From a virus: a DNA stretch of 64,000 nt. Positions 3,064-38,169 of this stretch are shown here, piece after piece. Positions within the stretch are counted from its first letter, which is position 1, and every line of letters begins with the position of its first letter. Below the pieces are notes generated by a model. It made no database searches and was not told the DNA's origin. It saw only the letters and a program-made list of their open reading frames with translations. A program made the translations under genes and the position numbers. The stretch lies in the IMG/VR virus record IMGVR_UViG_3300044858_003398; one strand, 5' to 3'.

Positions 3064-3504
3064 GTGGAAACAATGACAACATTAAAGAGTATATATCATC
3101 ACCCGATGTGTCCCCGCTTCTTCTTTAAAAAGTATGATGGCGGCAAAGATTCTGGGGTAGTCGGTCGGTTCTTGGTCGAATGGAAGCCTTTCTTCTCAAT
3201 TGGCTTGCTCCACTTCCGCAACGGAAGCAGAAAAAACTATCACTCTCACGCCTTCAATGCCATAAGCTGGTTCATTTGGGGCAGTGTTACAGAAGAACAC
3301 CTCAAGAGCGACTCCAAAGAGTTCAGGGCTTCGCTCATTCCCAAGATCACAAAAAGAGATTGTTTTCATCGAGTAATCTCACACGGAGACACTTGGTGTG
3401 TTACAATTCGGGGACCTTGGACCCCAACTTGGTGGGAATATAGGCCAGATACGAACACGTTCATAGAACTAACACACGGAAGAAAAGAGGCTAAAGCCCC
3501 TTGA
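3064..3504 (+). CDS. Cupin-fold phage protein
   Basis: HSHAF...GSVTEE...FHRV...TIRGP cupin metal-binding pattern. Confidence 0.6.
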   Translation: METMTTLKSIYHHPMCPRFFFKKYDGGKDSGVVGRFLVEWKPFFSIGLLHFRNGSRKNYHSHAFNAISWFIWGSVTEEHLKSDSKEFRASLIPKITKRDCFHRVISHGDTWCVTIRGPWTPTWWEYRPDTNTFIELTHGRKEAKAP

Positions 3505-3528
3505 CAGACGACAAAGTCGTCATACAAT
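3501..3528 (+). promoter_or_regulatory. Sigma70-type promoter upstream of the RNA ligase, palindromic spacer
   Basis: TTGACA, 16 nt spacer containing GACGAC-AAA-GTCGTC, then TACAAT. Confidence 0.75.
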
Positions 3529-3570: not shown

Positions 3571-4416
3571 ATGTTTGTTGCATACTCTTCAATTGAAAAT
3601 TCCTACAGAGACAAATTTGTGGCATCAATAAGGGAGGCCGGTCTCGACAAAGTTGAGTGGGTCGCACTTGAGAAAGTTCACGGGTGCAACTTTGGGTTTT
3701 GGCCAATCGACGGAGCCGTAAAGCCTAGCCAGAGAACTCAGTTTACTGATGGCAACTTCTACGGGTCTGGTCCAATAGTGGAAGAGCTAACGCCTAGGGT
3801 GCTTGCTTTGGGTAAGACCGTGTATGGGGAATTGTTTGGGCAGGGCATCCAGAAGGGCGTCAATTACGGTAAAAAGAGATTTGCCGCCTTTGATATCTGG
3901 GATAATGGATTCTTGAACTATGACGACTTCGTCACACTATGTGATAAGTTTGACATAGCAAGGTGTGCCGAGATTGCCAGAGGATCATTTGGTGATCTAC
4001 TCTCTATCGATCCTGCCTTTCCCACCAAGATGAGCGACTGTGGAGCTACCGACATAGCTGAAGGTTTCGTAATGAAGCCTGTAGTTGAAGCCTCTACTGA
4101 GTTTGGTCGGGCAATCCTTAAGAAGAAGTCTGCCAAATTCTTGGAGAAAGCGGTAAAAGAGAAGTCTAACAAGCCGACTCTGTCTGACGAGCAGAATGAG
4201 GTTCTCTCTGTATGCCTCTCTTACCTTTGCCCCAATCGGGTGTCTTCAGCCGTTTCAAAACATGGCGAGAAATTCCCAATCATCTTGAAAGAAGTGGTTG
4301 CGGATATCATCAAAGAGGTTACAATTGACGGAGTTGAAGTGGATAAGCTGGTGATGAACGAGCTTAACTCTGCTACAGCTAAGTGTATTAGAGCAGAACT
4401 ATTCCCTAATCAATAA
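3571..4416 (+). CDS. rnl2: RNA ligase, Rnl2 family
   Basis: Motif I EKVHGCNF, III YGELFG, IIIa FAAFDI, IV AEGFVMKP, V ILKKK. Confidence 0.9.
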   Translation: MFVAYSSIENSYRDKFVASIREAGLDKVEWVALEKVHGCNFGFWPIDGAVKPSQRTQFTDGNFYGSGPIVEELTPRVLALGKTVYGELFGQGIQKGVNYGKKRFAAFDIWDNGFLNYDDFVTLCDKFDIARCAEIARGSFGDLLSIDPAFPTKMSDCGATDIAEGFVMKPVVEASTEFGRAILKKKSAKFLEKAVKEKSNKPTLSDEQNEVLSVCLSYLCPNRVSSAVSKHGEKFPIILKEVVADIIKEVTIDGVEVDKLVMNELNSATAKCIRAELFPNQ

Positions 4417-9145: not shown

Positions 9146-10846
9146 TTTCGGAGCATATGGTATGTCTATGAGTGTTGATGAACTTCGTGAACTTGGTTGC
9201 TGGGTCTACATTCATCATAACCGAGTTCGCAAGAACAAATGGGTTAATACTTCCCCAACGACTAAGGTTCTAAAAGAACTGGTATGGCCTAAAGGCGGAT
9301 CTACATCAGTAGATATCGTCCTGCCTAATGGAGAAGAGTACGTAGGAATTGCTAATTGTCTATCTACAGACAGCTATAACAAGAAGCTAGGAGTTGCTTA
9401 TGCTCTTGATAGAGCAATTAGTGCCATGCTCAAACGTAACATTTTTGAAAAATCCAAGGGGGTGAACCATGCTAATTCAGCAAATTAAGGAGACTGAGGC
9501 CTCTATAACCTCTGCGAAAGAGGCTCTTAAGGCCCTAGAATCTGCCATTGGTCCGATTATGGCTGCTCCCAAGGACTCAGTTTATCCCAAGGGGGAGCCT
9601 CTCCCTGAGGGTAGTTCTGAGGCTACTAAACTCATGAAAGAGCTTGACTATTCCATTTTTCTTCTGAGGCTCGACATTGAGTCTCTCACTTCAAGGATTC
9701 AACTATGAAGTCTATCGCTGTTGCATTGGTGTCTTTGGCTTGCGTCTATCATCTGATTACCGTAGGTAATCTTGAAAAAGAGTCTACTTTGCTTAAACAT
9801 GAAATGGCTCTCCATAAGGCCGAGGCAGATATCTTGCGTGATCAGATGACAGATATGACTTTTCAGTGGTCTTCTAAGAAGACCTATGAGGAAGGCGTTA
9901 TGGATGGAATCCATAACTCTAAGAGTCATGAATACATGGCGGGATATCATTTTGCCGTAGGTCAGCTCTTTGCTGTTCCAGAGGACTCAGTTACCAGTAC
10001 TGAAGCAAAACCATGAAATACCGCTGCATCAAAGAATCCCCAGACTATGCCGAGGATGGGGAAGTCGATATGTGTCGATGCGTTGAGGGCTACATCTATG
10101 ATGTTAGCGAGATCATCGACACAAAATTTGGCAAAATGCTTGTAATCTCGGGCGAGTGGCACCTAGCAGAATGCTTTGAGCAAATATGAACGATAACGAT
10201 CCATACTGTCCCGAATGCCATGGGAGACACAGGGGTAGCTGTGGTAGGTTGATCGCACAGCAGGTACGTATTAGTCCACAAGATTCGATTGAGTCTGTGA
10301 TCAAGAAGCTATCTGCTATACGACCGCATTCTGTTGTAATCTCATCATATGAAAACGATGAGACTAGAGGCGTAATAATCAACTTTGAGAACAAAACTTT
10401 TGGGTGCTATTAATGACGAAAGACGAGAAGTTTGAGATCCTTGATATGATTGAGGAAGTTCTCACAAGATGTGAGGAGTCTATTTACAAACCAGAGTCGG
10501 AGACTTATCATTCAGTTGTTAATCCTGAAAAGGCTCGGCAGGCAATTCGGGCTATAAAGGACAACCTTAACCTAAGTGGAGAACCATGAAATTGCTTGCA
10601 GCATTGATGGCTTTTGCCATCTGCGTCTCAGGTGAGGCTGGCGAAACCAGCATCACCACAAAATTTGGAAATGGGACCTTGACACGTCGTTCTGATGGTG
10701 ATAGAATCATCACACAGCCCTTCGGACGAGGAACCTTATCTCGGGAAACTTTTAAGAATGGCCGCAAGGCCGTTCACATTTCTCAGCCATTTGGGCGGGG
10801 AACCATCACGAGATCCTACGGATCTCTGAGAATTAGCCCTAAATAA
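9138..10846 (+). CDS. Run of small hypothetical proteins (9138-9488, 9469-9708, 9705-10016, about 10013-10189, 10186-10413, 10413-10589, 10586-10846)
   Basis: Overlapping tandem ORFs; the last has a signal peptide and three FG.GT..R repeats. Confidence 0.65.
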
Positions 10847-11030
10847 TAAGCCTAACGGCAAAGAATGGGCGTATAAGATCTTAGCGGATCTTTTACAACC
10901 TATAATAAGGGGGCTTTGCCCCACCAGATCTAAGGCTTGTGTCGAGTGCGAGAGGAATTCCTAACAGGGCATTGTGTCCCACTGGACTAATCTTGGTAGA
11001 CATAAGGGTAAGCTAGGTCTGGCTTTATAT

Positions 11031-11108
11031 TCCGGAGGTAGATAGAATTGGCCACCTATCGAGTCGTCACAGACGACTCTAGCTCAATTGGCCGTAAAGA
11101 GTACCGGA
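11031..11108 (+). ncRNA. Circularly permuted tRNA-like RNA module
   Basis: Closing stem TCCGG/CCGGA; T-like arm GATAG/CTATC; loop-closed acceptor GAGTCGTC-ACA-GACGACTC; TA linker; D-arm GCTC-AATTGGCCGTAAA-GAGT. Confidence 0.65.
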
Positions 11109-11115
11109 TCTGAAA

Positions 11116-11260
11116 CGATCGGCGGCGTTGACAGCGAAACGCACACGAGGCGAAGTACAAGCTGAGTGAATACCACAAGACTTACCGGGCTGGAAAACGA
11201 TGGCAGTCCCTGACGGAGCAATCCGCCAATAAGATACAGGTGCAATTCCTGTCCGATCGA
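11116..11260 (+). ncRNA. tRNA-like RNA with the anticodon arm replaced by a ~90 nt insert
   Basis: Acceptor CGATCGG/CCGATCG-A; D-like arm GCGT..ACGC; T-arm ACAGG-TGCAATT-CCTGT. Confidence 0.6.
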
Positions 11261-11502
11261 TCTGATTTGGGACGAATGCTAGTATAGTCTACAATTTTTA
11301 ACTGTCCCGACTATACAACTTTTTGTCGTCCCATTAATATGCCGATGGCTTTATAGCATCGGAACGATGCAGGCAGGTTCAATTCCTGCTCGTTGACCGA
11401 GATCTGGTGAAAGAGGTGGCTCGAAGCCATCACTGGTGAAAACCTTAGGGAGTGCCCCGCCTTGACGGGGAGGTCCGAGTGATGGCCGTTAGCCATCTAT
11501 AT

Positions 11503-11574
11503 CGTTACTGGGAGGTAAGTATCTTGGACGGGCTCATAACCCGTTTTAAATCGGGGCGGTTCCGATAGTAACCA
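11503..11574 (+). tRNA. Divergent initiator-type tRNA-Met (CAU)
   Basis: Anticodon stem ACGGG/CCCGT (three G-C pairs) with loop CTCATAA; acceptor GTTACT/AGTAAC with unpaired position 1; non-canonical T-loop GGCGGTT. Confidence 0.7.
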
Positions 11575-11907
11575 CTTGGCTTCGCAAGAAGCCTAGAACA
11601 CTAGGCGTTAGCTGCATACTCCTATGGGGGGTGTTATTCCGAACAAGTATGGATTAGCTGTCCAGAAAAACTAGGAATGGCCACAAAGGGCAAATAGGTA
11701 GGGCTCTGAGGCTTGCTGGACGAAACGACCTGTTCCTAGTGTTCTTTTTTCGAAACTGCTTCGTAAGAAGCGCAGGTAACGTATAAGGGGGCCAAAGACC
11801 GTGGTTCTCGTGAAATAAACACCCAGAGGGAAACCTAGGCTGGGTGATAAAAACACGACGTAGCTTTTGGATGGCTTACGCCATCTCTGTACTTCTTGCG
11901 AAGCCTT

Positions 11908-11979
11908 TGACCAATAGCATAATCGGCAGTGTAACTGACTTTGACTCAGTTGGCGGTAGTTCGAATCTACCTTGGTCAA
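11908..11979 (+). tRNA. tRNA-Gln (UUG)
   Basis: Acceptor TGACCAA/TTGGTCA; ACTGA-CTTTGAC-TCAGT; T-arm GGTAG-TTCGAAT-CTACC. Confidence 0.9.
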
Positions 11980-12201
11980 TGTCAAGCAAGCGTAAGCTTG
12001 CGTACTCTGTGGGGCGAAGGTACGTCGCCCATTACTAGTATAAACCAAGTATGTCTTGAGACAAACTAGTAATCGTACACAGAGGCCCCTCGGGGCATTA
12101 GATCGTTGGTTCCACAGGTAGGTGAGTCATTGGAACATCTTGTCCGGCACTTCGTGGAGTCTCTCTGGCCGGAGAATAAATAGAGACCTAGGCCTACCAT
12201 C

Positions 12202-12273
12202 GGTTCTATAGTGTATCGGTTCGCACGACAGCCTGTCATGCTGTTAGGATGAGTTCAACTCTCATTGGAATCG
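12202..12273 (+). tRNA. tRNA-Asp (GUC)
   Basis: Acceptor GGTTCTA/TGGAATC-G; ACAGC-CTGTCAT-GCTGT; T-arm ATGAG-TTCAACT-CTCAT. Confidence 0.88.
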
Positions 12274-12464
12274 CTTAATAAGGCAAAGTCCATGAAAATC
12301 TATTTCGTAGTAACCCGTGACACTTCTTTTACTGGTCCAGACTCCGTCATCTGCGTAACCGCCGACAAGACAAAAGCCCTTGAGTACATGCTCCCTTGTC
12401 GATATATCAAAGAGTTCGATGTAGAAACTGACCAATTTGCCGACAAATCGAACGATTTGAGGCC

Positions 12465-12492
12465 TTGACTTCCCAAAAACGCCTGATAAAAT
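12465..12492 (+). promoter_or_regulatory. Sigma70-type promoter upstream of ORF 12517 and the tmRNA
   Basis: TTGACT, 16 nt spacer, TAAAAT. Confidence 0.6.
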
Positions 12493-12757
12493 GCGATCTG
12501 ACGATCCAAAACACAAATGACAAGGGGCGAAGTCATGAGCAGAGAAGATTTCGAGGATACAATCCTCTTTGATAAAATGGGTGAGTACATTGTGAATGAG
12601 ACTCTCGTCTCAGTCCAGTACTTCAGGGATGATCTGAAGGTCGGCTACTACAATGCAATCTCGGGGAATTCGGAAACCTATTCTGGGGTTGAGGTGGCCG
12701 ATCATATCCTAAGGAATCTCACCTTCAGTGAGACTCCTTATTAGGGCGAAGCCAAAC

Positions 12758-13030
12758 GGGCCGTAATTGATTTGAATGGCAATTAAGGCAATAACTGCGG
12801 GTAGGAGTTGGTCAACGGCTCCTTAAAAATTGACCGAACAATAACTGCAAAAACCTTTGCTGTAGCTGCATAAGCTGGAGGGTCTCATGCCCCTCCTTAC
12901 AAAAGCATGAGAGCAACGATACGCAACGTCAGCTTGGCTGACCACACGAACCGGGGGCTTTAGCCCCATACACCCGTAGACGTTATTGATGAGATTGTTC
13001 CATGACGGCATGTCGAAGTGCCACGGTCCA
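12758..13030 (+). ncRNA. ssrA: tmRNA; tag reading frame AKTFAVAA*
   Basis: Acceptor GGGCCGT/ACGGTCC-A with G3-U70; pk1-like GGAGTTGGTCAACGGCTCC..TTGACC; ATAACT then resume codon GCA AAA ACC TTT GCT GTA GCT GCA TAA (12847-12873). Confidence 0.92.
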
Positions 13031-13220
13031 TGAGCCCAATAGGGCTCTGATTTTCAGGCGTGACAGAATAGGCGAGCAAAACCCTTAGACAAGGTGTCGC
13101 AGACTTATTCCGGTGGGGTGTTTTCTTTAGCAGATTCTTGGGACCACGGGCGTTCACTCAAAAGAATCGCCGGTCTGAGTAATCCTACGTCTAATAGGAG
13201 AGCTATCACAGACCGTATCC

Positions 13221-13305
13221 TCCGGATTTTCCCATCGCTAAACTGTAAATTTAGTGCCATTAATATGATGGGTGGCGGCAAGTAGTTCGATTCTTCAATC
13301 CGGAA
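13221..13305 (+). ncRNA. Aberrant tRNA-Tyr-like RNA (GUA loop) lacking a D-arm
   Basis: Terminal stem TCCGGATT/AATCCGGA; GCTAAA-CTGTAAA-TTTAGT; long variable arm; TTCGATT loop on a weak T-stem. Confidence 0.5.
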
Positions 13306-13352
13306 TTTGGTGCCTTCGGCACCATAGACTCTCTTAAAATACCGAAGATATC

Positions 13353-13592
13353 ATGATCCAAACAACTCCAGCCAGAAACCTAGATGGAACCACCAAGGTG
13401 GATGGGACCGTAGTCATCTGTCTCAAGGATGGTCGGGTCGAAGAGGTAGTCTCAGACCTACAGCTTGATGTACAGGTGTTCAGTGTGGATTACGACTATG
13501 ATGGAGGGCGAGGATATGAGGGAAGACCGTCCCGGCCCCTCTGGGAATTTTTGAGGAAACTCATACATCTCCACTCGACAAACGAGAGATGA
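13353..13592 (+). CDS. Hypothetical protein
   Basis: ORF track; isolated ORF within the RNA island. Confidence 0.5.
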   Translation: MIQTTPARNLDGTTKVDGTVVICLKDGRVEEVVSDLQLDVQVFSVDYDYDGGRGYEGRPSRPLWEFLRKLIHLHSTNER

Positions 13593-13881
13593 TCAAGTAA
13601 ACTTGATAGACCACTAACAAATCCTGTGTCCCTGCGTGTGAAGGACTCCTCATTTTCACACAGAAGCTCGGATAAGTTCAGCAGAGACTAAGGATAAGAA
13701 ACTTGTTAGTGGCCTTTTAGATCTGGCAAACGCTTATGAAATAATAAGAGAATCGATTTGGGTCAAGCTTTCCTTCGGGGATTCTCCAGATGCCTAGGCT
13801 TCCCTTCTAGGTCTTTCAAAAGAATAAATCTTATAGCCACTACGGACACTTTCCGAGATTAAAGTGTCTAAGATCTTTTAT

Positions 13882-13954
13882 GGCTCCGTATCCCAATGCA
13901 GAGGAACTCGGCCTAGACCCGAGTAACGTGTCGGCTCGTTCCCGACCGGAGCTA
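13882..13954 (+). tRNA. tRNA with UAG anticodon (Leu-type), short variable region, C33
   Basis: Acceptor GGCTCCG/CGGAGCT-A; CTCGG-CCTAGAC-CCGAG; T-arm GTCGG-CTCGTTC-CCGAC. Confidence 0.75.
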
Positions 13955-14178
13955 CTTCACTACAGAAGCCGATAGGCCTATGCGTGAAGCCCTGATATAC
14001 GGCGATGTTGCAACATCTGTATATCCTTTTACTAGGTTGTGTCAATCTAGTCGGTCTTGCCTAACCGTGCTAGGCACTCAGATTACTTGAGTATGCAGTA
14101 GTCCGCTAAATTCGCCAGCGGTAGTTGGCAAAGGCAGGCTGAACAAGGCTGTCCGGTTGGCTGCAAGGCCAACACTTT

Positions 14179-14250
14179 GGCCGATTAGTTTATTTGGTAA
14201 AACATCTCCCTTGTAACGAGAAAAGCTCAGATCGTAGCTGAGATTGGCCT
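14179..14250 (+). tRNA. tRNA-Thr (UGU), divergent
   Basis: Acceptor GGCCGAT/ATTGGCC; TCTCC-CTTGTAA-CGAGA with a C:C mismatch; T-arm CTCAG-ATCGTAG-CTGAG. Confidence 0.75.
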
Positions 14251-14286
14251 ATCATTCCGGACAAAACTGCTAAGTAGGAACTTCAA

Positions 14287-14721
14287 ATGGGTGTTAATTA
14301 CGACCAGAAGTGCATGGTGGGAATAGAAGTTGATCTCTCAGATATCACCTATGTGGTCTCTGAAGCTGTCTATGAGGACCAAAACCGTTACGACCCACGT
14401 ACTGGCAAGATTCTCAAAACTGAGAAAGTGCTTGTAAAAGCAGCAGAACTTGAATATGTGTTCATGGGAAAAGAGAGCGACGACTGGTATTGTATGATTG
14501 AGAACATCGCTGAAGAGCTTGGTCTTGATTGTTACGTACCGAGAAGTGATGACGAGCAATACTTCTACATCGGCACGTTCGTCGGAGAGGAACAAGACAT
14601 GGGCAATGTCGATATGCTCACCGGCTCTGTCGAGATAAGCTATCTCGTAAAGCTTGCAGAAGAACTCAAGAGTAAACTCTCAGGAAATATCTCCCTTCAC
14701 TTTTTAAGTAGTGCAGGTTGA
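14287..14721 (+). CDS. Acidic hypothetical protein
   Basis: ORF with AGGA upstream. Confidence 0.65.
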   Translation: MGVNYDQKCMVGIEVDLSDITYVVSEAVYEDQNRYDPRTGKILKTEKVLVKAAELEYVFMGKESDDWYCMIENIAEELGLDCYVPRSDDEQYFYIGTFVGEEQDMGNVDMLTGSVEISYLVKLAEELKSKLSGNISLHFLSSAG

Positions 14722-14944: not shown

Positions 14945-15628
14945 ATGGACGAAATCAAAATTTTGATAGACTGTACATTTGGGCAAAACTATGGGAAAAA
15001 TCCCATAAAAACCTCAAGGGCGGTCTATCGAATCTTATGTCTGCCAAATCATAAAGTTTATGTTGGCTCTACAAACAACGCTATAGTTAGATTTCGCACC
15101 CACAAGGCGAGATTATCTAATGGTGAATTCCATTCTGTAGCGATGCAGTCTGATTTCAATTTCTATGGGAAAGAAAACTTTTCATTTGGAATCATAGAAG
15201 ATGATATCTTGATAGGAGTCGATAACATATATGCTAGGGAGGCATATTACATACGGCTTTATGATTCAACTAATCCAGATTGCGGATACAATCTTGCCCA
15301 CGTTAACGAATCCGGATCGTGCAAGTTCTCTGAAGATACAAAAAAGAAAATGAGTAAATCTGCCGAGGGCAGGATAAACTCAAGCGAGACTAGGGCAAAG
15401 ATCAAACTAGCTAACACTGGTAGAACTCCAGCCAAGCATAGCATAGAAGCCGCAGTAATCTCAAGATCAAAAAGGCATACCTTCGTTTCCCCAGATGGGG
15501 AAGTGGTGGAGATCTTCAATATTAGTAAGTTTTGTAGAGAGCACAACTTACAACAATCGTGCATGTCAGAAGTATCAAACGGTAATAGGAATTTTCACAA
15601 AGGTTGGAGGAACTATAATGGGCGTTAA
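14945..15628 (+). mobile_element. GIY-YIG homing endonuclease with NUMOD3 repeats
   Basis: AVYRI....HKVYVGST....RF..H; E..YI..Y.S....GYN; NUMOD3-like SEDTKKKMS and SSETRAKIK. Confidence 0.88.
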
Positions 15629-16358
15629 GTTGAATCAGATCATTGCTATTGCAAACGGAAAGAAAGCAGCAGCCACTGCCGCCATCACGGAAATTTACAA
15701 GGTCTTGCAGAAACCGGACCTGTTCGGGGGTTTCACTCGGGTTTACCAGCCCAATGACGACGAGGGCGAGAAGCTCCCCTCGGAATCTAAGATTGTTCAG
15801 CAGACGGTCGCTGCAAACCTACGAGCCGCCCAAGAGCAACTGGTTGAACTCTTCGACACTATTGCTACTCAAGAGGTGGCAAACTGTGAGGCTAAAGCCG
15901 ATATCGTGGTCGGTGGGACGACCTTGGCCACCCAAGTTCCCGTCTCGCTCATGCTTTTCCTTGAGAAGCAAGTAGACAACATGAAAGCACTGATTTCCAA
16001 GCTGCCCGTGCTCAGCACGGACACTAACTGGAAGGTTTCTGAGAGCGATCCAAACATCCACGTTACGGATACAGTGACGACCACACGAACCAAGAAGGTG
16101 CCCAAGGCGTTTGTCAAGGCAGCAGCCACTGACAAGCATCCTGCCCAAGTTGATGTCTTTACTGAAGACATTATCGTAGGAAACTGGAACAAGGTGGAAA
16201 TGTCTTCAGCGGTGCGAATCTCAACACGAGACGCGATGCTCAAAAAGGTCGACTCTCTCCGAGAGGCGATCAAGATGGCTCGCGAAGAAGCGAACTCCAT
16301 CGAAGTAAAGAAAATTGAGATTGGTAAGAAGATTACCGATTTCGTGTTTGGCGGCTAA
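15618..16358 (+). CDS. Uncharacterised helical/coiled-coil protein (MGVKLNQIIAI...) linked to a downstream ncRNA
   Basis: GGAGG at 15606-15610 before ATG 15618; 246 aa; long amphipathic helices at both ends around a beta-rich middle. Confidence 0.85.
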   Translation: MGVKLNQIIAIANGKKAAATAAITEIYKVLQKPDLFGGFTRVYQPNDDEGEKLPSESKIVQQTVAANLRAAQEQLVELFDTIATQEVANCEAKADIVVGGTTLATQVPVSLMLFLEKQVDNMKALISKLPVLSTDTNWKVSESDPNIHVTDTVTTTRTKKVPKAFVKAAATDKHPAQVDVFTEDIIVGNWNKVEMSSAVRISTRDAMLKKVDSLREAIKMAREEANSIEVKKIEIGKKITDFVFGG

Positions 16359-16369
16359 TCGCCCCAAAC

Positions 16370-16800
16370 GAACCATATTGAGGACCTCTGGTCCCTCTGG
16401 AAAGTAGAGTAGCCTTAGTATAAGATTCAGTTTCATTCGTATTGATGGCAAAGTGTTGGTTCAAATCCAACCCCCTGCATTTTCAACCACGCAGGGGTAG
16501 CCCAACGGTAGAGGCACCATCAACGAAGTAAGCTTTAGCTTATCTCTACAGGCTAAGTACCGATAGTAGAGTTGTAAATCCAGTTCTTATCGACAAACAT
16601 TTGTTTATACGGGTTCAACTCCCGTGGTCGAAGCCATGTTCAGATGCGTCTGAGCTAGGCTTCGACCTAGCATAACGGTTAATGCAGCAGACATAAGAAT
16701 GATCGATAGGATTAAACGAAGATAGTTACAACAATACTAGTAATCCGAAAGGATATAACACTACCGCCCCGGTCTATGTGCTATTAGGCCGGGGCATTTT
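16370..16800 (+). ncRNA. Large structured RNA with two permuted tRNA-like (YrlA-like) modules
   Basis: Module 1 at 16442-16523 and module 2 at about 16583-16700; each has a T-arm (TTCAAAT or TTCAACT loop), a closed acceptor stem and a D-arm (AACGGT loop) on a long imperfect stem. Confidence 0.8.
16766..16800 (+). terminator. Intrinsic terminator
   Basis: GCCCCGGTCTA...TAGGCCGGGGC followed by ATTTT. Confidence 0.8.
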
Positions 16801-18304: not shown

Positions 18305-18814
18305 ATGACCTTCCTAGACCTATTTGATTCTCCCTATTCCCCAGCTAACGACGACAAAGTCACTCGTCTAGCTCGTGAGCTTCCCAAGCTGCCAAAGTCC
18401 ATTATCATTGTGGACGTTAGTGGTAGCATGGAATTGCCTAACGGCAATTATTCAAGGTTGCAAATTGCGGCAGCTTTAGCTGCCGAGATCAAGTTGCGGG
18501 CTGACGCACCCCTATATGCCAGTTCAGGCCTTGACTCTGACCAATCCCACATCACCGAGCAACTCAACTATGATGGGTTTAATCTATGGTTGGCCCTAAG
18601 AAGAGCCTGTTATGATTTTGGTGGTGGTGGGATCTTCCTAGAAAAAGCTGTTAAGCATGTCAGCCACTACCATGTCAAGCCTGAAAGGCTTTACATCCTT
18701 ACAGATGAGCAGAACTCCTACCTGCCAACTTTCGGCAAAAGCGTCTTCAATGTTGATGTCGGTTGTCAGTCCTTCGAAGAAACTCGCAGAATGCTAGATT
18801 TGGAGGTCGCATGA
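18305..18814 (+). CDS. Stand-alone VWA domain resembling the C-terminal domain of TROVE/Ro60-like proteins
   Basis: MIDAS motif IIIVDVSGSM, AAALAA helix, GGGIF and LYILTDEQ; no TROVE HEAT-repeat region. Confidence 0.7.
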   Translation: MTFLDLFDSPYSPANDDKVTRLARELPKLPKSIIIVDVSGSMELPNGNYSRLQIAAALAAEIKLRADAPLYASSGLDSDQSHITEQLNYDGFNLWLALRRACYDFGGGGIFLEKAVKHVSHYHVKPERLYILTDEQNSYLPTFGKSVFNVDVGCQSFEETRRMLDLEVA

Positions 18815-19266
18815 CCCTATCCTTTAAGAATGGTTGCCTAATAGAAGCGGCCAAGAATAAAGAGATCGACTACTTGATTCATTGTGCGAATTGCTTCTCC
18901 ACGATGGGTTCAGGAGTGGCCAAACTTATCAAGGAAGAATTCCCAAAAGCCTTCTTAGTAGATCAGGCCGATTATAGATCCCCGATTGAGAGGATCGGCT
19001 CATATTCTTCAGTCTTCCTGAGTGGGTTGACTATTATTAATCTATATGCTCAATATGACTATGGGACATCCTGTCGTAAGTTTGAGTATGGAGCCTTCAA
19101 GAGAGCCTTGGACGAAATCTGTAGAGACTTCTCTTTTACTGGGAAGACTATAGGTCTTCCAGAAATCGGGTGTGGTTTGGGGGGAGCCGACAAAAGTCTG
19201 GTCCACGATATCCTCGAAGATTATGCTACCGAAGGTAGCTGGACAATTTACACGCTAGGGAAATAA
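18811..19266 (+). CDS. Macrodomain (ADP-ribose processing) protein
   Basis: IHCANCFSTMGSGVAK.IK..FP; IINLYAQY; LPEIGCGLGG. Confidence 0.9.
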   Translation: MTLSFKNGCLIEAAKNKEIDYLIHCANCFSTMGSGVAKLIKEEFPKAFLVDQADYRSPIERIGSYSSVFLSGLTIINLYAQYDYGTSCRKFEYGAFKRALDEICRDFSFTGKTIGLPEIGCGLGGADKSLVHDILEDYATEGSWTIYTLGK

Positions 19267-23776: not shown

Positions 23777-24277
23777 ATGATTGAGATGAAGATCTCGGAT
23801 ATCGACATGATGAATGCAAAGTCCCGCAGTGACTTGATGGGAGTCCTCGCCAGTTCCCGGACCCAAGGGAAAGGGAATTTGGCAGGATTTGTCGGAGAAG
23901 CCTTGACAGAAAGGCACACCTCTGGTAAGCTTGTGGAAAGCTACGACTACGACATAGAGATTTGTGATCTGAAGATTGATGTCAAGACAAAGTCTTGCTC
24001 CTCAGAGCCGAAGGCTCACTATCTATGTTCGGTCATGAGCTACCAACTCAAGAACGAATGTGACGGGTATATCTTTGCTAGAGTTAACCTAGCATCTGGA
24101 GTCGGCTGGCTCTTGGGGTATATTAGCAAAGTTGACTTGTTAGACAGGGGGTTCTTCGCCAAGAAGGGTTCCCCGGACGGCAGATTTACTTTTACTGAAG
24201 ATTGTTGGAACGTCCAAATTTCAAATTTGGATAACATACCTTTAAGCGAGCAAAGCCATGATTCCACTGATCAATAG
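23777..24277 (+). CDS. PD-(D/E)XK nuclease-like protein
   Basis: G.VGE...YDYDI.....IDVKTK...YIFARV.....WLLGYI. Confidence 0.55.
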   Translation: MIEMKISDIDMMNAKSRSDLMGVLASSRTQGKGNLAGFVGEALTERHTSGKLVESYDYDIEICDLKIDVKTKSCSSEPKAHYLCSVMSYQLKNECDGYIFARVNLASGVGWLLGYISKVDLLDRGFFAKKGSPDGRFTFTEDCWNVQISNLDNIPLSEQSHDSTDQ

Positions 24278-25229
24278 AACCCATTACAGCATCCACCGAG
24301 CCTTCTCAAAGCCTAAGGAAATAGCACAGAAGGCCAAAGCTTTAGGTTATGAGGCCGTAGGCCTCTGTGACTTTGGTAATGTCTCTGCCGCCCTCGAATT
24401 CATTGAGGAGTGTAAGTCAGCCAAGATCAAGCCTATTATCGGGTGTGACTTTGGCGAGACTTACGCCTTCTGCAAGAACCTCCAAGGGTGGAAGGATTTA
24501 TTGTCTGTTGTGAACGAATTCTCTATTCATGCCCGCCTCAATCGGGACACCTTAGCTAATTCACCCCACCTTATTTCTTTTACCGGAAAGCTCCCAGACT
24601 GCCGTTATGTCGAAAAAGAGGATGAAGAGTTCTACCGCATTCTGCGGTGCTTAGGACTTAAGATCAAACTGTCCGAACTAACCGAGATAACCTCTGGTTA
24701 CCATATGGTTTCGCCAAGTGAGATCCCCGAGAATCCAATCTATGAGGCCTTCGACCTCGTAGAGGTCTTCGAAATTGCTGCTCCCCCAAAACTCCCCAAA
24801 TTCTCCGATGGGGAAGTTGAGCTACTCTGGACTAAGGTGCGAGCAGGGCTCACTCAACATACAGAGAACTTCGATCCTATCAAGAAGGCCGAGTATGACG
24901 CTCGTGTACGCTACGAGATGAAGGTTATTGAGTTGGCCAATCTATCTGGCTATTTCCTTATTGTATCAGACTTTGTCAATAAGGGTAGAAGTGATGGACA
25001 ATTATGTAGCATAGGAAGAGGAAGTAGTGCTGGCTGCTTAGTTTCTGACCTTATAGGTATTAATCTAGTTGATCCTATGCCTTATGGGCTCTTGTTCAGT
25101 CGCTTCTTTAACGCAGCGCGAGCTTACCCTAAACACTTAAGTTTTGATGAGTATCCCTTTATTGATGAATTCAGAGACTTCGAAGCTATCTACCTGAAAG
25201 AGTTGGAGACTATTCATGCCAAAGTTTGA
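24258..25229 (+). CDS. dnaE: DNA polymerase III alpha, N-terminal part (degenerate PHP plus start of palm)
   Basis: THYS..., CDFGN, IKPIIG, R.RYEM.VI....YFLIVSDFV, GRGSSAG.LV..LIGI..VDP..YGLLFSRFFN; stops before the PDID motif. Confidence 0.9.
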   Translation: MIPLINRTHYSIHRAFSKPKEIAQKAKALGYEAVGLCDFGNVSAALEFIEECKSAKIKPIIGCDFGETYAFCKNLQGWKDLLSVVNEFSIHARLNRDTLANSPHLISFTGKLPDCRYVEKEDEEFYRILRCLGLKIKLSELTEITSGYHMVSPSEIPENPIYEAFDLVEVFEIAAPPKLPKFSDGEVELLWTKVRAGLTQHTENFDPIKKAEYDARVRYEMKVIELANLSGYFLIVSDFVNKGRSDGQLCSIGRGSSAGCLVSDLIGINLVDPMPYGLLFSRFFNAARAYPKHLSFDEYPFIDEFRDFEAIYLKELETIHAKV

Positions 25230-27061: not shown

Positions 27062-27522
27062 GTAATTACCTCTTTCTTGATGTGGACGGCGTCCTTAATA
27101 ACTTCCTCTCCGAGGACGACTACTTCAACGAGTTCAACATGAGCTGTCTGCGACAGCTCTGTGAGACAATAGATTTTAAAATTGTGCTCAGTTCGGACTG
27201 GAGAAGGCTCCCAAAGAATAAGGCTAGAGTTCGTTCCGAACTCAGGCACGCAGGGCTTGAGTTATACAGTTGTACACCGACCCACACCTTCGGCGGCAAC
27301 CGTAAAGATGAAATCAAAGATTGGCTAAAAGAAGATCCAGAGGTTTGGAATAGTTTTTCTGGTCTAATACTGGATGATATGGGTCCAGACGAGTGCGATC
27401 CGAAATTACCCAACCTTCTCTTTTACCGAACCGATTACAAGCTTGGCCTAACCGAACAGGACGTTGACATTATCTTGGAGAAATTAAATGGGGCTTCGCC
27501 TAGAGGATCATATGACTCCTAA
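27058..27522 (+). CDS. HAD-superfamily phosphatase (RNA-repair-associated type)
   Basis: FLDVDGVLN, IVLSSDWR, R..EI..WL, ILDD, GLT. Confidence 0.85.
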   Translation: MSNYLFLDVDGVLNNFLSEDDYFNEFNMSCLRQLCETIDFKIVLSSDWRRLPKNKARVRSELRHAGLELYSCTPTHTFGGNRKDEIKDWLKEDPEVWNSFSGLILDDMGPDECDPKLPNLLFYRTDYKLGLTEQDVDIILEKLNGASPRGSYDS

Positions 27523-28123
27523 AACATCACTTGAGTACATTGAAAAGACGGCCAACGACCTTGGCGTAGCCCACATTGCCAATGAAGTTATTGGCGATGG
27601 TAGGTTTTACCTATGGTCTGGCTCCTCACGTAGGGAGCAGCATCACTATGGAAAGCATGGACTGGTTAGACATACCGCCGAAGTAATTCAGCTATGCCTA
27701 GCGAATGATGCAATACTTGGTTGCGGCATGAGTCAGAGAGAGTTATTCTTGGCTGCATTGTTCCATGACTGTGGAAAAATGTGGGACTATGGGCCTAGCG
27801 GCCCTGAGAGCAGTCCTAATTATGATACATGGATTTCTATGCCTCACAAGCGAAGCATTCATCATATCAGCCGTTCTGCAATTCAATGGAACCTTGCCGC
27901 CGAAAAATGGGGCTTGGCTAAGCCAGCCACTATAGAGGATTTTGTTAAGTCAATTGATGTGGATGAAATCACACATGCTATTCTGGCCCATCATGGGCAG
28001 CGAGCTTGGGGAAGCCCAGTTGCTCCTAAGAGTGGATTAGCTTGGATGTTGCACCTATGTGATGGGATATCGGCAAGAATGGATGACTGTGATAGTTGGG
28101 ACCCATACTCTGGAGCGAAATAG
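27512..28123 (+). CDS. HD-domain phosphohydrolase (YhaM-like HD domain)
   Basis: HHYG..GLVRHT.EV, ALFHDCGK..DY, HAILAHHG...WGSPV.P, LH.CD.ISA. Confidence 0.85.
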   Translation: MTPKTSLEYIEKTANDLGVAHIANEVIGDGRFYLWSGSSRREQHHYGKHGLVRHTAEVIQLCLANDAILGCGMSQRELFLAALFHDCGKMWDYGPSGPESSPNYDTWISMPHKRSIHHISRSAIQWNLAAEKWGLAKPATIEDFVKSIDVDEITHAILAHHGQRAWGSPVAPKSGLAWMLHLCDGISARMDDCDSWDPYSGAK

Positions 28124-35442: not shown

Positions 35443-38169
35443 ATGACCGGACTCTCCCCAGAACAAATTACCTCCCTAGAACGCCACCTAGAAATAGAAG
35501 ATGGTGGAGCCATTTCCTTTTTACTGGAAGAAGAGTCGCTTCGCGACTCGCTACCTGACGGTAAGGCCTATTATGAGCACATCATAAGTTCTGTAGAGTT
35601 AGACCGCTCCAATCCTAAGAACTCCTACATCATGTACATAGCAGGCAAGGTTGATAGAATAGACATGTCAAAGCCATGCCTATTCACGAAGGCATCAACC
35701 GCCCTGCCTGATATTGACGTAGACTTTCCTACGGATTATCGTGAGAAAGCTATCGACTACGTCAGGACTAAGTATGGGGCAGACAAAGTCTGCCAGATTA
35801 CGACCTTCGGTCGGCTATCGGGACGCTCAGCAGTTAAGGCTGTCATGCGAGTCGAGGGCGGATACGACTTTGAGACGATGAATATCGTTACTGAAGGAAT
35901 CCCCGATGAAGCCGCCATCTCCGATCAATTAGAGGAGACTGGCGAAGACAGTATCCTCTCATGGATGCTCCATAATGATGGGGATAAGATTGCCGATTAT
36001 TGTCGTCTTGAGGATGGTATCTTAGTCGGCGACTACGCCGACATCTTCCGTAAGGCTATCGCTCTAGAGGGAACCTTCCAGAATCAGGGCAAACACGCAG
36101 CAGGCGTTATCATTTCCTCTGAGGAAGTGGCCAAAGTTAGCCCAATGTGCCTCGCCAAAGATGGCTCGGCGATAGCCGCCTTTGACATGGCATGGCTGGA
36201 GAAGGCCGGTCTTGTTAAGTTCGACTTTCTCGGGGTAGATATTCTCAATAAGATTCAGGAGGCATGGGGTCCCGACATAGTAAATGTCCCTTTTACTGAT
36301 GAAGAAGCATGGGACGTTATCTGTGGTGGGAATACTAAGGGGTGTTTCCAGATTGAGAACCATCTAGGGAGAGACTGGTCTAAGGAAATCCGCCCACGCA
36401 ATATCGAAGAGCTTTCTGCTGTAATTTCCGTGATCCGCCCCGGCAGCTTGATGGCTCGGGATGAGTCTGGCAGATCCATGACTAAAGTTTATGCCGACAG
36501 GAAGAACGGGTTGGAGCCCGTTGAGGATAACCCAATCAATCGAGTAATTGATACTTATGGTGTCCTCGTATATCAGGAGACACTACAGATCATAGCAAAG
36601 ATCTTGGCTGGATTCAATTGTGCAGATGGTATCAAGCTGATGAAATCGGTCGGTAAAAAAGATGCCAAACTTCTCTTTTCTCTTGAAGATAAGTTCCTGT
36701 CGGGATGTCTTAAGACTGGTACTATACCTAAAGATGATGCAGTTAAATTATTCACTAACATTAAATCTAGTGCCCGCTACCTTTTTAATAAATCTATTTC
36801 TAGTGAATCAATAACTAAATGTCGCGATGGATCTACAAAGACCATAGCACAAATTCAGGCTGGCGACGAGGTGATGACCCCAACAGGCTTCGCGAAAGTA
36901 ATAGCTAAATACGATCATGGGGTTATGGATACTTATTCAGCCACATTCTCAAATGGATCGAATGTTCGGTGTAGTATTAATCACAAGTTCTTATGTGAGA
37001 ATGGTGATATCCTACCCCTTGGACAAATACTTTATGAAGGAAGGCGAGTAATTGCTGAATCAGAAACAGTAGAAATAATATACTTGGACTATGTGGGGAA
37101 AGAGAATCTTTGGGACATAGAGATAGATTCTGAGGATCATATTTACTTCGCCAACGGAGTTGCCACAAGTAACTCCCATGGAGTTTCGTACTCATACCCA
37201 TGCTACTGGTCGGCATATATCAAGGCCCACAAACCACTAAAGTTCTATGAGGTATGGTTAAAATATTCGTCTCATAAGTTAGATCCTCATGCTGAGGTTC
37301 GTAACCTAGTACTTTCGGCGAAGCTTGACAACATTGAGATCCTCCCGCCCTCGTGTGAATACCTAACCGAGGGTTTCTTCATTAAAGACAACTCCGTTGT
37401 CTTCGGATTGTCACATATCAAAGGTGTAGCTAATCGCGAATTAGAGAAGCTATTCGCATTAATGAGGACGCACGGAGTCCGTGCGTCTCTCGTTACTTAC
37501 TTGACTGAGATTCTCCCCCATATCAACAAGAGAACCTGTGAAGCACTGATTAACTGTGGCTGCTTCCATTATCTCGGAGTATCCCGTGCAGCTTTGCTGC
37601 ACTATTACGAGTGCTTCTCAGACCTCTCCGACAAGGAGCTGGTCTTCTTTCAGGACAAGTCCTTCAAGACGCCAGCAGAAGCCTTGGAAGCGGCTTGTCT
37701 GCTTAAGAAGGAAGGCGGGGCTTGTGCCACCAAAGGAAGAGTTGAAAAGCTCAAAATAATACTTGAACGTCTGACAAATCCGGGTAGAATCTTACATGAC
37801 CTGCCGGGGAAGATCGCTGCGTCCGAAGAGGCTGCAATTGGTACGACTTTGTCGTGCAGCTATATGGATGCTTGCTTAGCGGCAGGCGTAGCAGATACTA
37901 CATGTAAAGAAATCATGAGGGGCAAGCCGGGCAAGAGGACTATCGTTGTCAGAATCACAGAAGTTAAGGAACACATAATCAAGTCGTCAGACAAGAAGAT
38001 GGCATTTCTGACCGTATCTGATGACACGGCAGAGATCGATAATGTGGTCTGCTTTGCTGACCAGTATGAGCAGTTTGGCAGATTTATGTTCGATGGGGCG
38101 ATGGTCGCCATCTATGGGGAACTCGGTAAAAAGAAAAGTTTCGTAATTGATCGCTGCACAGAATTATAA
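35443..38169 (+). CDS. dnaE: DNA polymerase III alpha, C-terminal part (catalytic palm, fingers, HhH, OB), intein-containing
   Basis: LPDIDVDF, YG.DKVCQI.TFG, GKHAAGVII, GLVKFDFLG, G.FQIE, RPG, YGVLVYQE, FNK|SH, FGLSHIKGV, KKMAFLTVSD. Confidence 0.93.
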   Translation: MTGLSPEQITSLERHLEIEDGGAISFLLEEESLRDSLPDGKAYYEHIISSVELDRSNPKNSYIMYIAGKVDRIDMSKPCLFTKASTALPDIDVDFPTDYREKAIDYVRTKYGADKVCQITTFGRLSGRSAVKAVMRVEGGYDFETMNIVTEGIPDEAAISDQLEETGEDSILSWMLHNDGDKIADYCRLEDGILVGDYADIFRKAIALEGTFQNQGKHAAGVIISSEEVAKVSPMCLAKDGSAIAAFDMAWLEKAGLVKFDFLGVDILNKIQEAWGPDIVNVPFTDEEAWDVICGGNTKGCFQIENHLGRDWSKEIRPRNIEELSAVISVIRPGSLMARDESGRSMTKVYADRKNGLEPVEDNPINRVIDTYGVLVYQETLQIIAKILAGFNCADGIKLMKSVGKKDAKLLFSLEDKFLSGCLKTGTIPKDDAVKLFTNIKSSARYLFNKSISSESITKCRDGSTKTIAQIQAGDEVMTPTGFAKVIAKYDHGVMDTYSATFSNGSNVRCSINHKFLCENGDILPLGQILYEGRRVIAESETVEIIYLDYVGKENLWDIEIDSEDHIYFANGVATSNSHGVSYSYPCYWSAYIKAHKPLKFYEVWLKYSSHKLDPHAEVRNLVLSAKLDNIEILPPSCEYLTEGFFIKDNSVVFGLSHIKGVANRELEKLFALMRTHGVRASLVTYLTEILPHINKRTCEALINCGCFHYLGVSRAALLHYYECFSDLSDKELVFFQDKSFKTPAEALEAACLLKKEGGACATKGRVEKLKIILERLTNPGRILHDLPGKIAASEEAAIGTTLSCSYMDACLAAGVADTTCKEIMRGKPGKRTIVVRITEVKEHIIKSSDKKMAFLTVSDDTAEIDNVVCFADQYEQFGRFMFDGAMVAIYGELGKKKSFVIDRCTEL
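36793..37173 (+). mobile_element. Mini-intein (127 aa, no endonuclease domain) in DnaE
   Basis: Interrupts the conserved YLFNK|SHGVSY; starts SISSES; block B CSINHKF; block F WDIEID..HIYFANG; ends ATSN with +1 Ser. Confidence 0.88.

Follow-up and report, generated by a model that had tools for sequence, protein, structure and literature searches.

A plus-strand island of tRNAs, a predicted tmRNA and conserved structured RNAs in an uncultured phage lineage

Phage tRNA clusters that contain extra stable RNAs are already known, as are phage transfer-messenger RNAs (tmRNAs), which are uncommon. The tRNA cluster of phage T4 comprises eight tRNAs, the GIY-YIG homing endonuclease gene segB, and the stable 120-140-nt RNAs RNA C (species 1) and RNA D (species 2), spaced 1-6 nt apart. 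The RNAs of this cluster are released by precursor processing. Some fifty years after the discovery of RNA C and RNA D, neither has a known role (PMC3014915). Here we describe a locus in a 64,000-nt stretch of viral DNA (the window), corresponding to bases 2382-66381 of the 123.6-kb IMG/VR contig IMGVR_UViG_3300044858_003398, which is estimated to be 79% complete. Between an open reading frame (ORF) ending at 10846 and a gene starting at 14287 lies a 3.4-kb island (10847-14286) containing three canonical tRNAs, three atypical tRNAs, a tmRNA, and two tRNA-shaped RNAs. Comparison with related contigs also supports at least four non-tRNA families of structured RNA, which we refer to as A/X, D, H, and the 13989-14175 element. 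The island is probably an array of plus-strand RNA genes that is processed from long precursors as in T4 and shares a translation theme. The T4 cluster with RNA C and RNA D appears to be its best analogue. Both loci are tRNA arrays with extra structured RNAs a few nucleotides from the tRNAs and a homing endonuclease gene in or beside the array, whereas the island is larger and adds the tmRNA, the atypical tRNAs, and families that do not resemble tRNAs, unit D among them. Blastn against a phage collection gave no sequence match to T4 rnaC or rnaD. The structured-RNA candidates collected in bulk from IMG/VR intergenic regions (PMC10690425) are similar in showing covariation in uncultured phage contigs and in being tRNA-like in many cases.

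The original prediction had described this region as an island of many unassigned structured RNAs between tRNAs, each closed by its own terminal helix, in a stretch where credible ORFs are scarce. Its terminal helices and an isolated T-arm minihelix are all present as predicted, and the scarcity of ORFs is borne out, with about 82% of 10847-14286 non-coding and three credible ORFs, all small (12292-12468, 12535-12744, and 13353-13592). The picture of a plus-strand RNA gene island also stands, given the tRNAs, the tmRNA, and conserved units with compensatory changes. The prediction missed the tmRNA, the three atypical tRNAs, RNAs at 13056-13215 and 12005-12084, and two protein genes. Its expectation of new RNA classes holds at least for the unit D family, which lies outside Rfam 15, but "many" was an overcount in view of the tmRNA, the three atypical tRNAs, and the two protein genes. 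With the boundaries originally proposed, fold z-scores are -6.0 for 11758-11904 (unit D), -4.6 for 13611-13712 (unit F), -4.3 for 11414-11498 (unit B), -2.1 for 10924-11022 (unit A), -1.8 for 11595-11745 (unit C), -1.2 for 13959-14102 (unit G), and -0.7 for 12117-12198 (unit E), and the canonical tRNAs of the island reach only -0.8 to -2.3. An unbiased 120-nt scan of the first 32.7 kb of the window gave a mean z of -0.99 in the island versus -0.64 elsewhere (Mann-Whitney p = 0.036), with many coding windows also reaching z < -4. Perfect helices of at least 9 bp spanning 60-170 nt number four in the island, compared with 1.0 +/- 1.1 in shuffled sequence and 0-3 in other 3.4-kb segments. Since even true tRNAs score weakly, fold energy is not decisive, and our verdict therefore rests on comparison with relatives.

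Protein scans and pattern scans yielded about 17 related contigs, with L003/L014, L120, L121, L122, L123, L126, L128, L130, L135, and L137 as close relatives and L124/L125/L132, L136, and L142/L147 as distant ones. A 14-nt pattern scan was set aside, the matches listed being mostly chance, and a search of viral contigs for relatives of a 144-amino-acid flanking protein found none. Unit D (11758-11904, plus strand) is strongly supported by these comparisons as a new, covariation-supported family of conserved structured RNA, its novelty being judged against Rfam 15. Beyond its closing helix, the RNA comprises a hairpin whose 7-nt loop is conserved, a 5-bp helix, a 7x7 internal loop, a distal helix, and a 3' hairpin that varies. 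Invariant among these are the 5-bp helix, the 7-nt hairpin loop, and the symmetric, A-rich internal loop, in which AAAUAAA lies opposite AUAAAAA. A covariance model built from nine sequences (model R1) detects 17 copies at 79-164 bits, representing about seven sequence types, and in 0.5 Mb of unrelated viral DNA nothing scored above 14 bits except L063 (128 bits), which is a further record of the relative contig behind L121. In the alignment 90% of cells pair, as against 76% for column shuffles and ~40% for slid partners, and 27 of 47 pairs change on both sides, a number matched by none of 500 shuffles; these counts come from a model-fitted alignment, which leans towards structure, and are strong but not final. 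The closing helix measures 13 bp both in the window and in the L120 and L122 types, 9 bp in the L003/L135 type, and 5 bp in the distant types, and its sequences in the window, L120, and L124 types are mutually unrelated. The frequent G-U pairs of the plus strand helices would be A-C mismatches on the other strand, and unit D therefore points to an RNA of the plus strand. No frame is open across all homologues, and five of the nine carry a stop in every frame. Over 11758-11904 Rfam 15 gave no match at E <= 10 with permissive filters, and the unit D pattern returned one partial chance match (16 bits) from 185,579 bacterial and archaeal species genomes. Model R1 matches neither rnaC nor rnaD of T4, and homology to them was rejected.

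These properties bear on the possibility that the inverted repeats act as DNA, for example as a site for replication or packaging, or as repeats at the ends of small mobile elements. Units B, D, and F have similar fold stability on either strand and the units behave as insertable cassettes, as such elements might. However, the closing helix of unit D occurs with at least three unrelated sequences of similar length, unlike repeats recognized by a transposase, many G-U pairs exist on the plus strand only, and the units are co-oriented with the tRNAs, so that we regard a DNA-level function as highly improbable. As an RNA, unit D most likely acts in trans, and we conjecture that it binds a protein or another RNA through the invariant A-rich internal loop. 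In the eight contigs where both were found, including the distant L124, the tmRNA lies 0.3-0.9 kb downstream of unit D. Pairing of the unit D loop with the 3' end of the tmRNA was considered and rejected; the 8-nt complementarity present in the window fails to covary in L120 and L124, and chance alone would produce about 0.6 matches of this kind (our own estimate, not computed by a tool). A role of the closing strand as a riboswitch platform hiding a Shine-Dalgarno sequence was also discarded, as an ATG follows in L120 and L130 and not in the window, L003, L122, or L123. No hammerhead or twister core was seen in unit D on inspection by eye, without a formal test. A shared boundary motif ending in CTGG is not enriched (92 matches versus 76 +/- 8.5).

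In the window the boundaries of unit D may also belong to a larger structure. A perfect 14-bp helix pairs 11578-11591 with 11892-11905, is present in both the minimum free energy (MFE) and centroid folds (z = -6.6), and would close a 328-nt composite domain (11578-11905, plus strand) enclosing units C and D. This helix competes with unit D's own closing helix and is specific to the window, not being seen in relatives; according to the fold prediction, units C and D may form one domain. A 14-nt hairpin motif occurs here in three copies, two direct and one inverted (11579-11592, 11758-11771, and 11891-11904), and more copies flank unit D in L135.

The tmRNA (12758-13033, plus strand) is identified by its sequence features as a one-piece ribosome-rescue tmRNA. 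Its match to the Rfam tmRNA model (RF00023) is 38.6 bits (E = 4e-13), below the 47-bit cut-off, and ARAGORN misses it with default and relaxed settings; homologues in relatives score 47.1-77.4 bits against the same cut-off. Sub-threshold tmRNA matches can be false, as a control search also matches archaeal genomes, and the defining features were therefore checked directly. Read from its ends, the RNA has a tRNA-Ala-like acceptor with a G3:U70 pair, which is also present in L124. The tag ORF (12847-12873) encodes AKTFAVAA, where relatives have AKSFAVAA. The tag has a hydrophobic C-terminus and is conserved as coding sequence, third codon positions showing synonymous changes and the stop changing from TAA to TAG. 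In pseudoknot PK1, which precedes the tag, compensatory changes distinguish the window from L003 in both helices, and the T-stem covaries. The tRNA-like domain with G3:U70, a tag frame ending in AA and a stop, and the covarying PK1 are thus shared with RF00023, whereas the short length (~273 nt), the 8-residue tag, the score below the Rfam cut-off, and the absence of an SmpB gene from the contig are different here. No CCA is encoded, and a terminator-like hairpin (13032-13047) follows the gene. SmpB (PF01668) has no match in the 79%-complete contig, and host SmpB would therefore be needed. Among sequenced phages about 2% contain a tmRNA (PMC9004378).

The canonical tRNAs are tRNA-Gln (UUG, 11907-11980), tRNA-Asp (GUC, 12202-12274), and tRNA-Thr (UGU, 14179-14250), all on the plus strand. 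Three further plus-strand genes are supported by comparison as atypical tRNAs with conserved tRNA-type folds, a 7-nt anticodon loop, and covarying stems, although default ARAGORN and Rfam at E <= 10 call none of them. Two are reported by relaxed ARAGORN and have a cloverleaf as MFE fold, namely an RNA with a CAU anticodon (11503-11575) and a tRNA-Leu-like RNA with a UAG anticodon (13882-13955). The former shares homology with the tRNA-Met called in L135, their acceptors differing by an A-U to G-C change, and the latter resembles the tRNA-Leu (UAA) of L003, with a compensatory change in the T-stem. The third (13221-13304) is a tRNA-Tyr-like RNA with a GUA anticodon and no D-arm, whose acceptor and anticodon stems covary with the copy in L123; L003, L130, and L122 have a canonical tRNA-Tyr at this position. 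In the distant relative L124, the Rfam tRNA model matches 113 nt (940-1052) at 51 bits, suggesting a tRNA with an insert, and a second tRNA-like gene with a long insert (3385-3505) lies between unit D and the tmRNA.

The homology of the atypical tRNAs to canonical tRNAs of relatives raises the question of whether much of the island is debris, consisting of decaying tRNA genes and the recombination scars of homing endonucleases that are kept only by linkage. The insertions and orphan units specific to the window and the homing endonuclease gene beside the island fit such decay. In contrast, compensatory changes in the atypical tRNA stems, unit D, the A/X family, unit H, and the 13989-14175 element indicate selection for structure, which makes this explanation quite unlikely in our judgment. 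Unit A (10924-11022, plus strand), a member of the A/X family with a closing helix of 9-10 bp, has homologues in L003, L120, L122, L130, and L135, of which the window copy is a diverged member. Positions 6-7 of its closing helix change on both sides (U-A, C-G, and U-G), an internal motif is conserved, and single-stranded sequence is kept as well as the helices, so that a conserved RNA with compensatory changes is supported by the comparison. Unit H (13056-13215, plus strand) is a conserved, non-coding RNA of 160 nt predicted to form three hairpins, and is 98% identical to L003 and 80% to L123. Its substitutions are clustered in one helix and compensatory, its single-stranded sequence is conserved too, and stops occur in all plus strand frames with no codon pattern. 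Between the tmRNA and unit H, L003 (3036-4876) and L123 (4017-5455) carry an insertion of 1.4-1.8 kb that is not present in the window. Directly upstream of tRNA-Thr, a five-hairpin RNA (13989-14175, plus strand) is 81% identical to L003, and a comparison of three sequences shows two-sided changes in 9 of its 50 predicted pairs, again supporting a conserved RNA. This element overlaps unit G, the boundaries of which (about 13959-14102) were misplaced in the original prediction. A two-hairpin module at 11031-11112 (plus strand), with D-arm-like loops around a variable central hairpin, is 79% identical to L130 and 70% to L120/L126, with compensatory changes in both the flanking stem and the central hairpin.

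The remaining proposed units fare less well. Unit B (11414-11498, plus strand) contains two copies of a similar hairpin that are able to cross-pair and has the same z on both strands. Only its 3' hairpin (11471-11502) is conserved, in L120, L121, and L126, and a T-run follows it in L120, making it terminator-like, so that comparison weakly supports unit B as an RNA unit. Units C (11595-11745), E (12117-12198), and F (13611-13712), all taken on the plus strand, have no support beyond their predicted folds. Unit C is an orphan in which the 11-bp closing helix is present, unit E is unsupported, and unit F is a hairpin-rich orphan candidate with a z of -4.5 on the minus strand, within a 370-nt insertion (13620-13989) that is missing from L003. 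A predicted three-way-junction RNA (12005-12084, or 12005-12096 with a GC hairpin, plus strand) has a z of -4.9, with 0 of 200 shuffles folding as well, and no homologue of 12005-12096 was found. As structured RNAs, the originally listed units thus divide into D with strong support, A, the 13989-14175 element and the minihelix with support, and B with its 3' hairpin only, leaving C, E, and F without a homologue.

The T-arm minihelix is supported as real by comparison and belongs to one of two adjacent tRNA-shaped RNAs, in which the acceptor and T-arm are kept and other hairpins replace the anticodon arm. The first (11116-11260, plus strand) combines a 7-bp acceptor with a D-like arm and a T-arm and has extra hairpins where the anticodon arm would be, and RNAs of L120 and L123 have the same architecture. 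The second (11259-11404, plus strand; z = -4.0) is a predicted four-way-junction RNA containing a Y-RNA-like long hairpin (11268-11332), a further hairpin, and the minihelix (11363-11394) as its 3' arm. The hairpin shows 86% conservation in L003, where one pair is flipped. At the 3' end, the last 43 nt match an RNA region of Pseudomonas phage Touem01 that lacks annotation at 91% identity, the T-stem differing by a compensatory A-U to G-C change, and the T-arm module is thus common to the island and an unrelated phage. The Touem01 region (L001 3251-4196, record 13272-14215) is an unannotated non-coding stretch of ~950 nt with three T-arm modules and also a 100-nt tRNA-like RNA with a 7-bp acceptor. 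The predicted fold of T4 rnaC, with a closing stem, long hairpins, and a T-arm, resembles both 11116-11260 and 11259-11404. The long hairpin of 11259-11404 also carries the motif GNCGAAN0-1G in its 5' strand (11270-11277), which is the basal-stem motif of Y RNAs as defined in PMC4201824. Like bacterial YrlA and YrlB (RF02553 and RF02565), the RNA has a motif-bearing long hairpin next to a T-arm module, but it differs in topology, scores far below the cut-off, and has no TROVE gene accompanying it in the contig. The YrlB match is weak (28.6 bits, E = 0.008, versus a cut-off of 97), YrlA has no match at E <= 10, Ro60/TROVE (PF05731) has no match in the contig, and the ORF at 18305-18814 has no Pfam match. 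Assignment of 11259-11404 as a Y RNA therefore fails on score and on the missing TROVE gene. Apart from this weak YrlB match, none of the listed units has an Rfam match at E <= 10, so that the suggested Rfam comparison assigned no unit, but it did bring up the sub-threshold tmRNA.

The arrangement of the island suggests how its RNAs may be produced. The array would be transcribed from one or two promoters as long precursors; a candidate sigma-70-like promoter, based on a consensus match only, lies upstream of the first RNA block at 10679-10707 on the plus strand (11 of 12 matches, with an extended -10). The RNA units share the orientation of the tRNAs, and several structured units stop 2-4 nt short of a tRNA 5' end, a spacing that release by RNase P would lead one to expect. 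RNase P of the host, together with enzymes of 3' processing, would cut the precursors at the tRNA and tRNA-like modules, and by analogy with T4 these cuts may release the neighboring structured RNAs as stable species. The common theme would be the upkeep of translation during infection, to which decoding, the tagging and rescue of ribosomes, and the tRNA-shaped molecules would all contribute. We favor translation under attack as the theme because of the tmRNA, the tRNAs, the nearby RNA ligase, and published work on phage tRNAs, which counter tRNA-targeting defenses (PMC10264068, PMC11464382). The tRNA-shaped RNAs might, as a guess, act as variants or decoys that resist host tRNA-cleaving defenses. 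The islands of relatives are mosaics in which flanks are 75-90% identical and RNA modules come, go, or swap order, and the modules behave as cassettes whose subset and order differ among close relatives.

If processing operates in this way, the structured units could simply be spacers of tRNA precursors, serving as nuclease entry sites, protective hairpins, attenuators, or terminators and having no function once cut out. The T-run after the conserved unit B hairpin in L120, the terminator-like hairpin after the tmRNA, the recurrence of short hairpin motifs (one 14-nt motif being present in three copies), and the weak overall z-score enrichment are all compatible with spacers. However, unit D retains its invariant loops and 147-nt multi-helix architecture across seven types, even without a tRNA nearby, and the A/X family and unit H conserve single-stranded sequence besides their helices, and we consider it unlikely that spacers account for the structured units. 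The preferred reading, a processed array of RNA genes with a translation theme, also has several observations against it. Unit D adjoins a tRNA only in this window, and its release by tRNA processing is therefore not general; the 8.8-kb locus of L142 has no called tRNA, the tmRNA search there not having been made at the lenient threshold. Unit D is represented by only about seven sequence types in an alignment fitted to the model. Covariance modelling with related contigs, as the original prediction had suggested, was productive for unit D with its 17 copies, but no relative examined has a homologue of unit C, E, or F. Two of the units, C and E, are not distinguishable from shuffled sequence by fold z, with D, F, and B lying between -4 and -6, and fold energy and long-helix counts barely separate the island from coding DNA and are weak alone. 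Finally, processing, expression, and the decoy and protein-binding roles are conjectural. A more far-reaching version, in which unit D is a new class of functional RNA with the A-rich loop as its active or binding site and may aid rescue RNAs, the tRNA-shaped RNAs are decoys, and the island is an RNA-only counter-defense arsenal, is improbable on present evidence.

On the comparisons made here, several features appear to be new, namely unit D as a family, the elements A/X, H, and 13989-14175, the dense packing of tRNA look-alikes, and the cassette-like turnover. The island presents a much richer example of the puzzle posed by RNA C and RNA D of T4, and unit D provides a cleanly defined family with a covariance model and seven sequence types to hand. 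Default tRNA and tmRNA finders missed four RNA genes in this island, so that uncultured phages probably contain more RNA than is currently recognized. The turnover of cassettes between near-identical phages suggests rapid selection and would fit an arms race over the translation machinery.

Two of the three small ORFs in the island are, judged by their substitution patterns in comparisons with three or four relatives, real protein genes, most of the substitutions falling at third codon positions (21-23 of 28-32 and 9-18 of 14-31). The 69-amino-acid gene at 12535-12744 (plus strand), which has its own promoter-like site (12465-12492), shows 6/3/23, 5/2/21, and 6/4/21 substitutions by codon position relative to three relatives. 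In the 79-amino-acid gene at 13353-13592 (plus strand), third-position substitutions are the largest class, and tblastn identity is 74-91% in three contigs. The source phage appears from its sequence to be of an uncultured lineage with a genome of roughly 150 kb. None of 50,697 phage records reaches 30% identity with its DnaE-like polymerase, which points to a lineage without a close cultured relative. The polymerase is split across two ORFs ~10 kb apart, of which 24258-25229 contains the PHP domain together with the first part of the Pol III alpha domain and 35443-38169 the remainder of alpha and the finger, HhH, and OB domains. Genes for an Rnl2-like RNA ligase (3571-4416), a macro domain protein (18763-19266), and an HD-domain protein (27488-28123) are found within 17 kb of the island, as a possible RNA-repair or counter-defense context, and a DNA ligase gene is also among the genes near it. 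The homing endonuclease gene that adjoins the island (14945-15628) belongs to GIY-YIG/HNH PHROG families, and the lowest z-score of the fold scan (-6.3, at 14961-15080) lies inside it. A DUF7873 gene (15495-16358) is followed by a non-coding stretch (16404-16800), in which relaxed ARAGORN reports two tRNA-like modules (16404-16479 and 16482-16636) and fold z-scores are -4.4 to -5.2.

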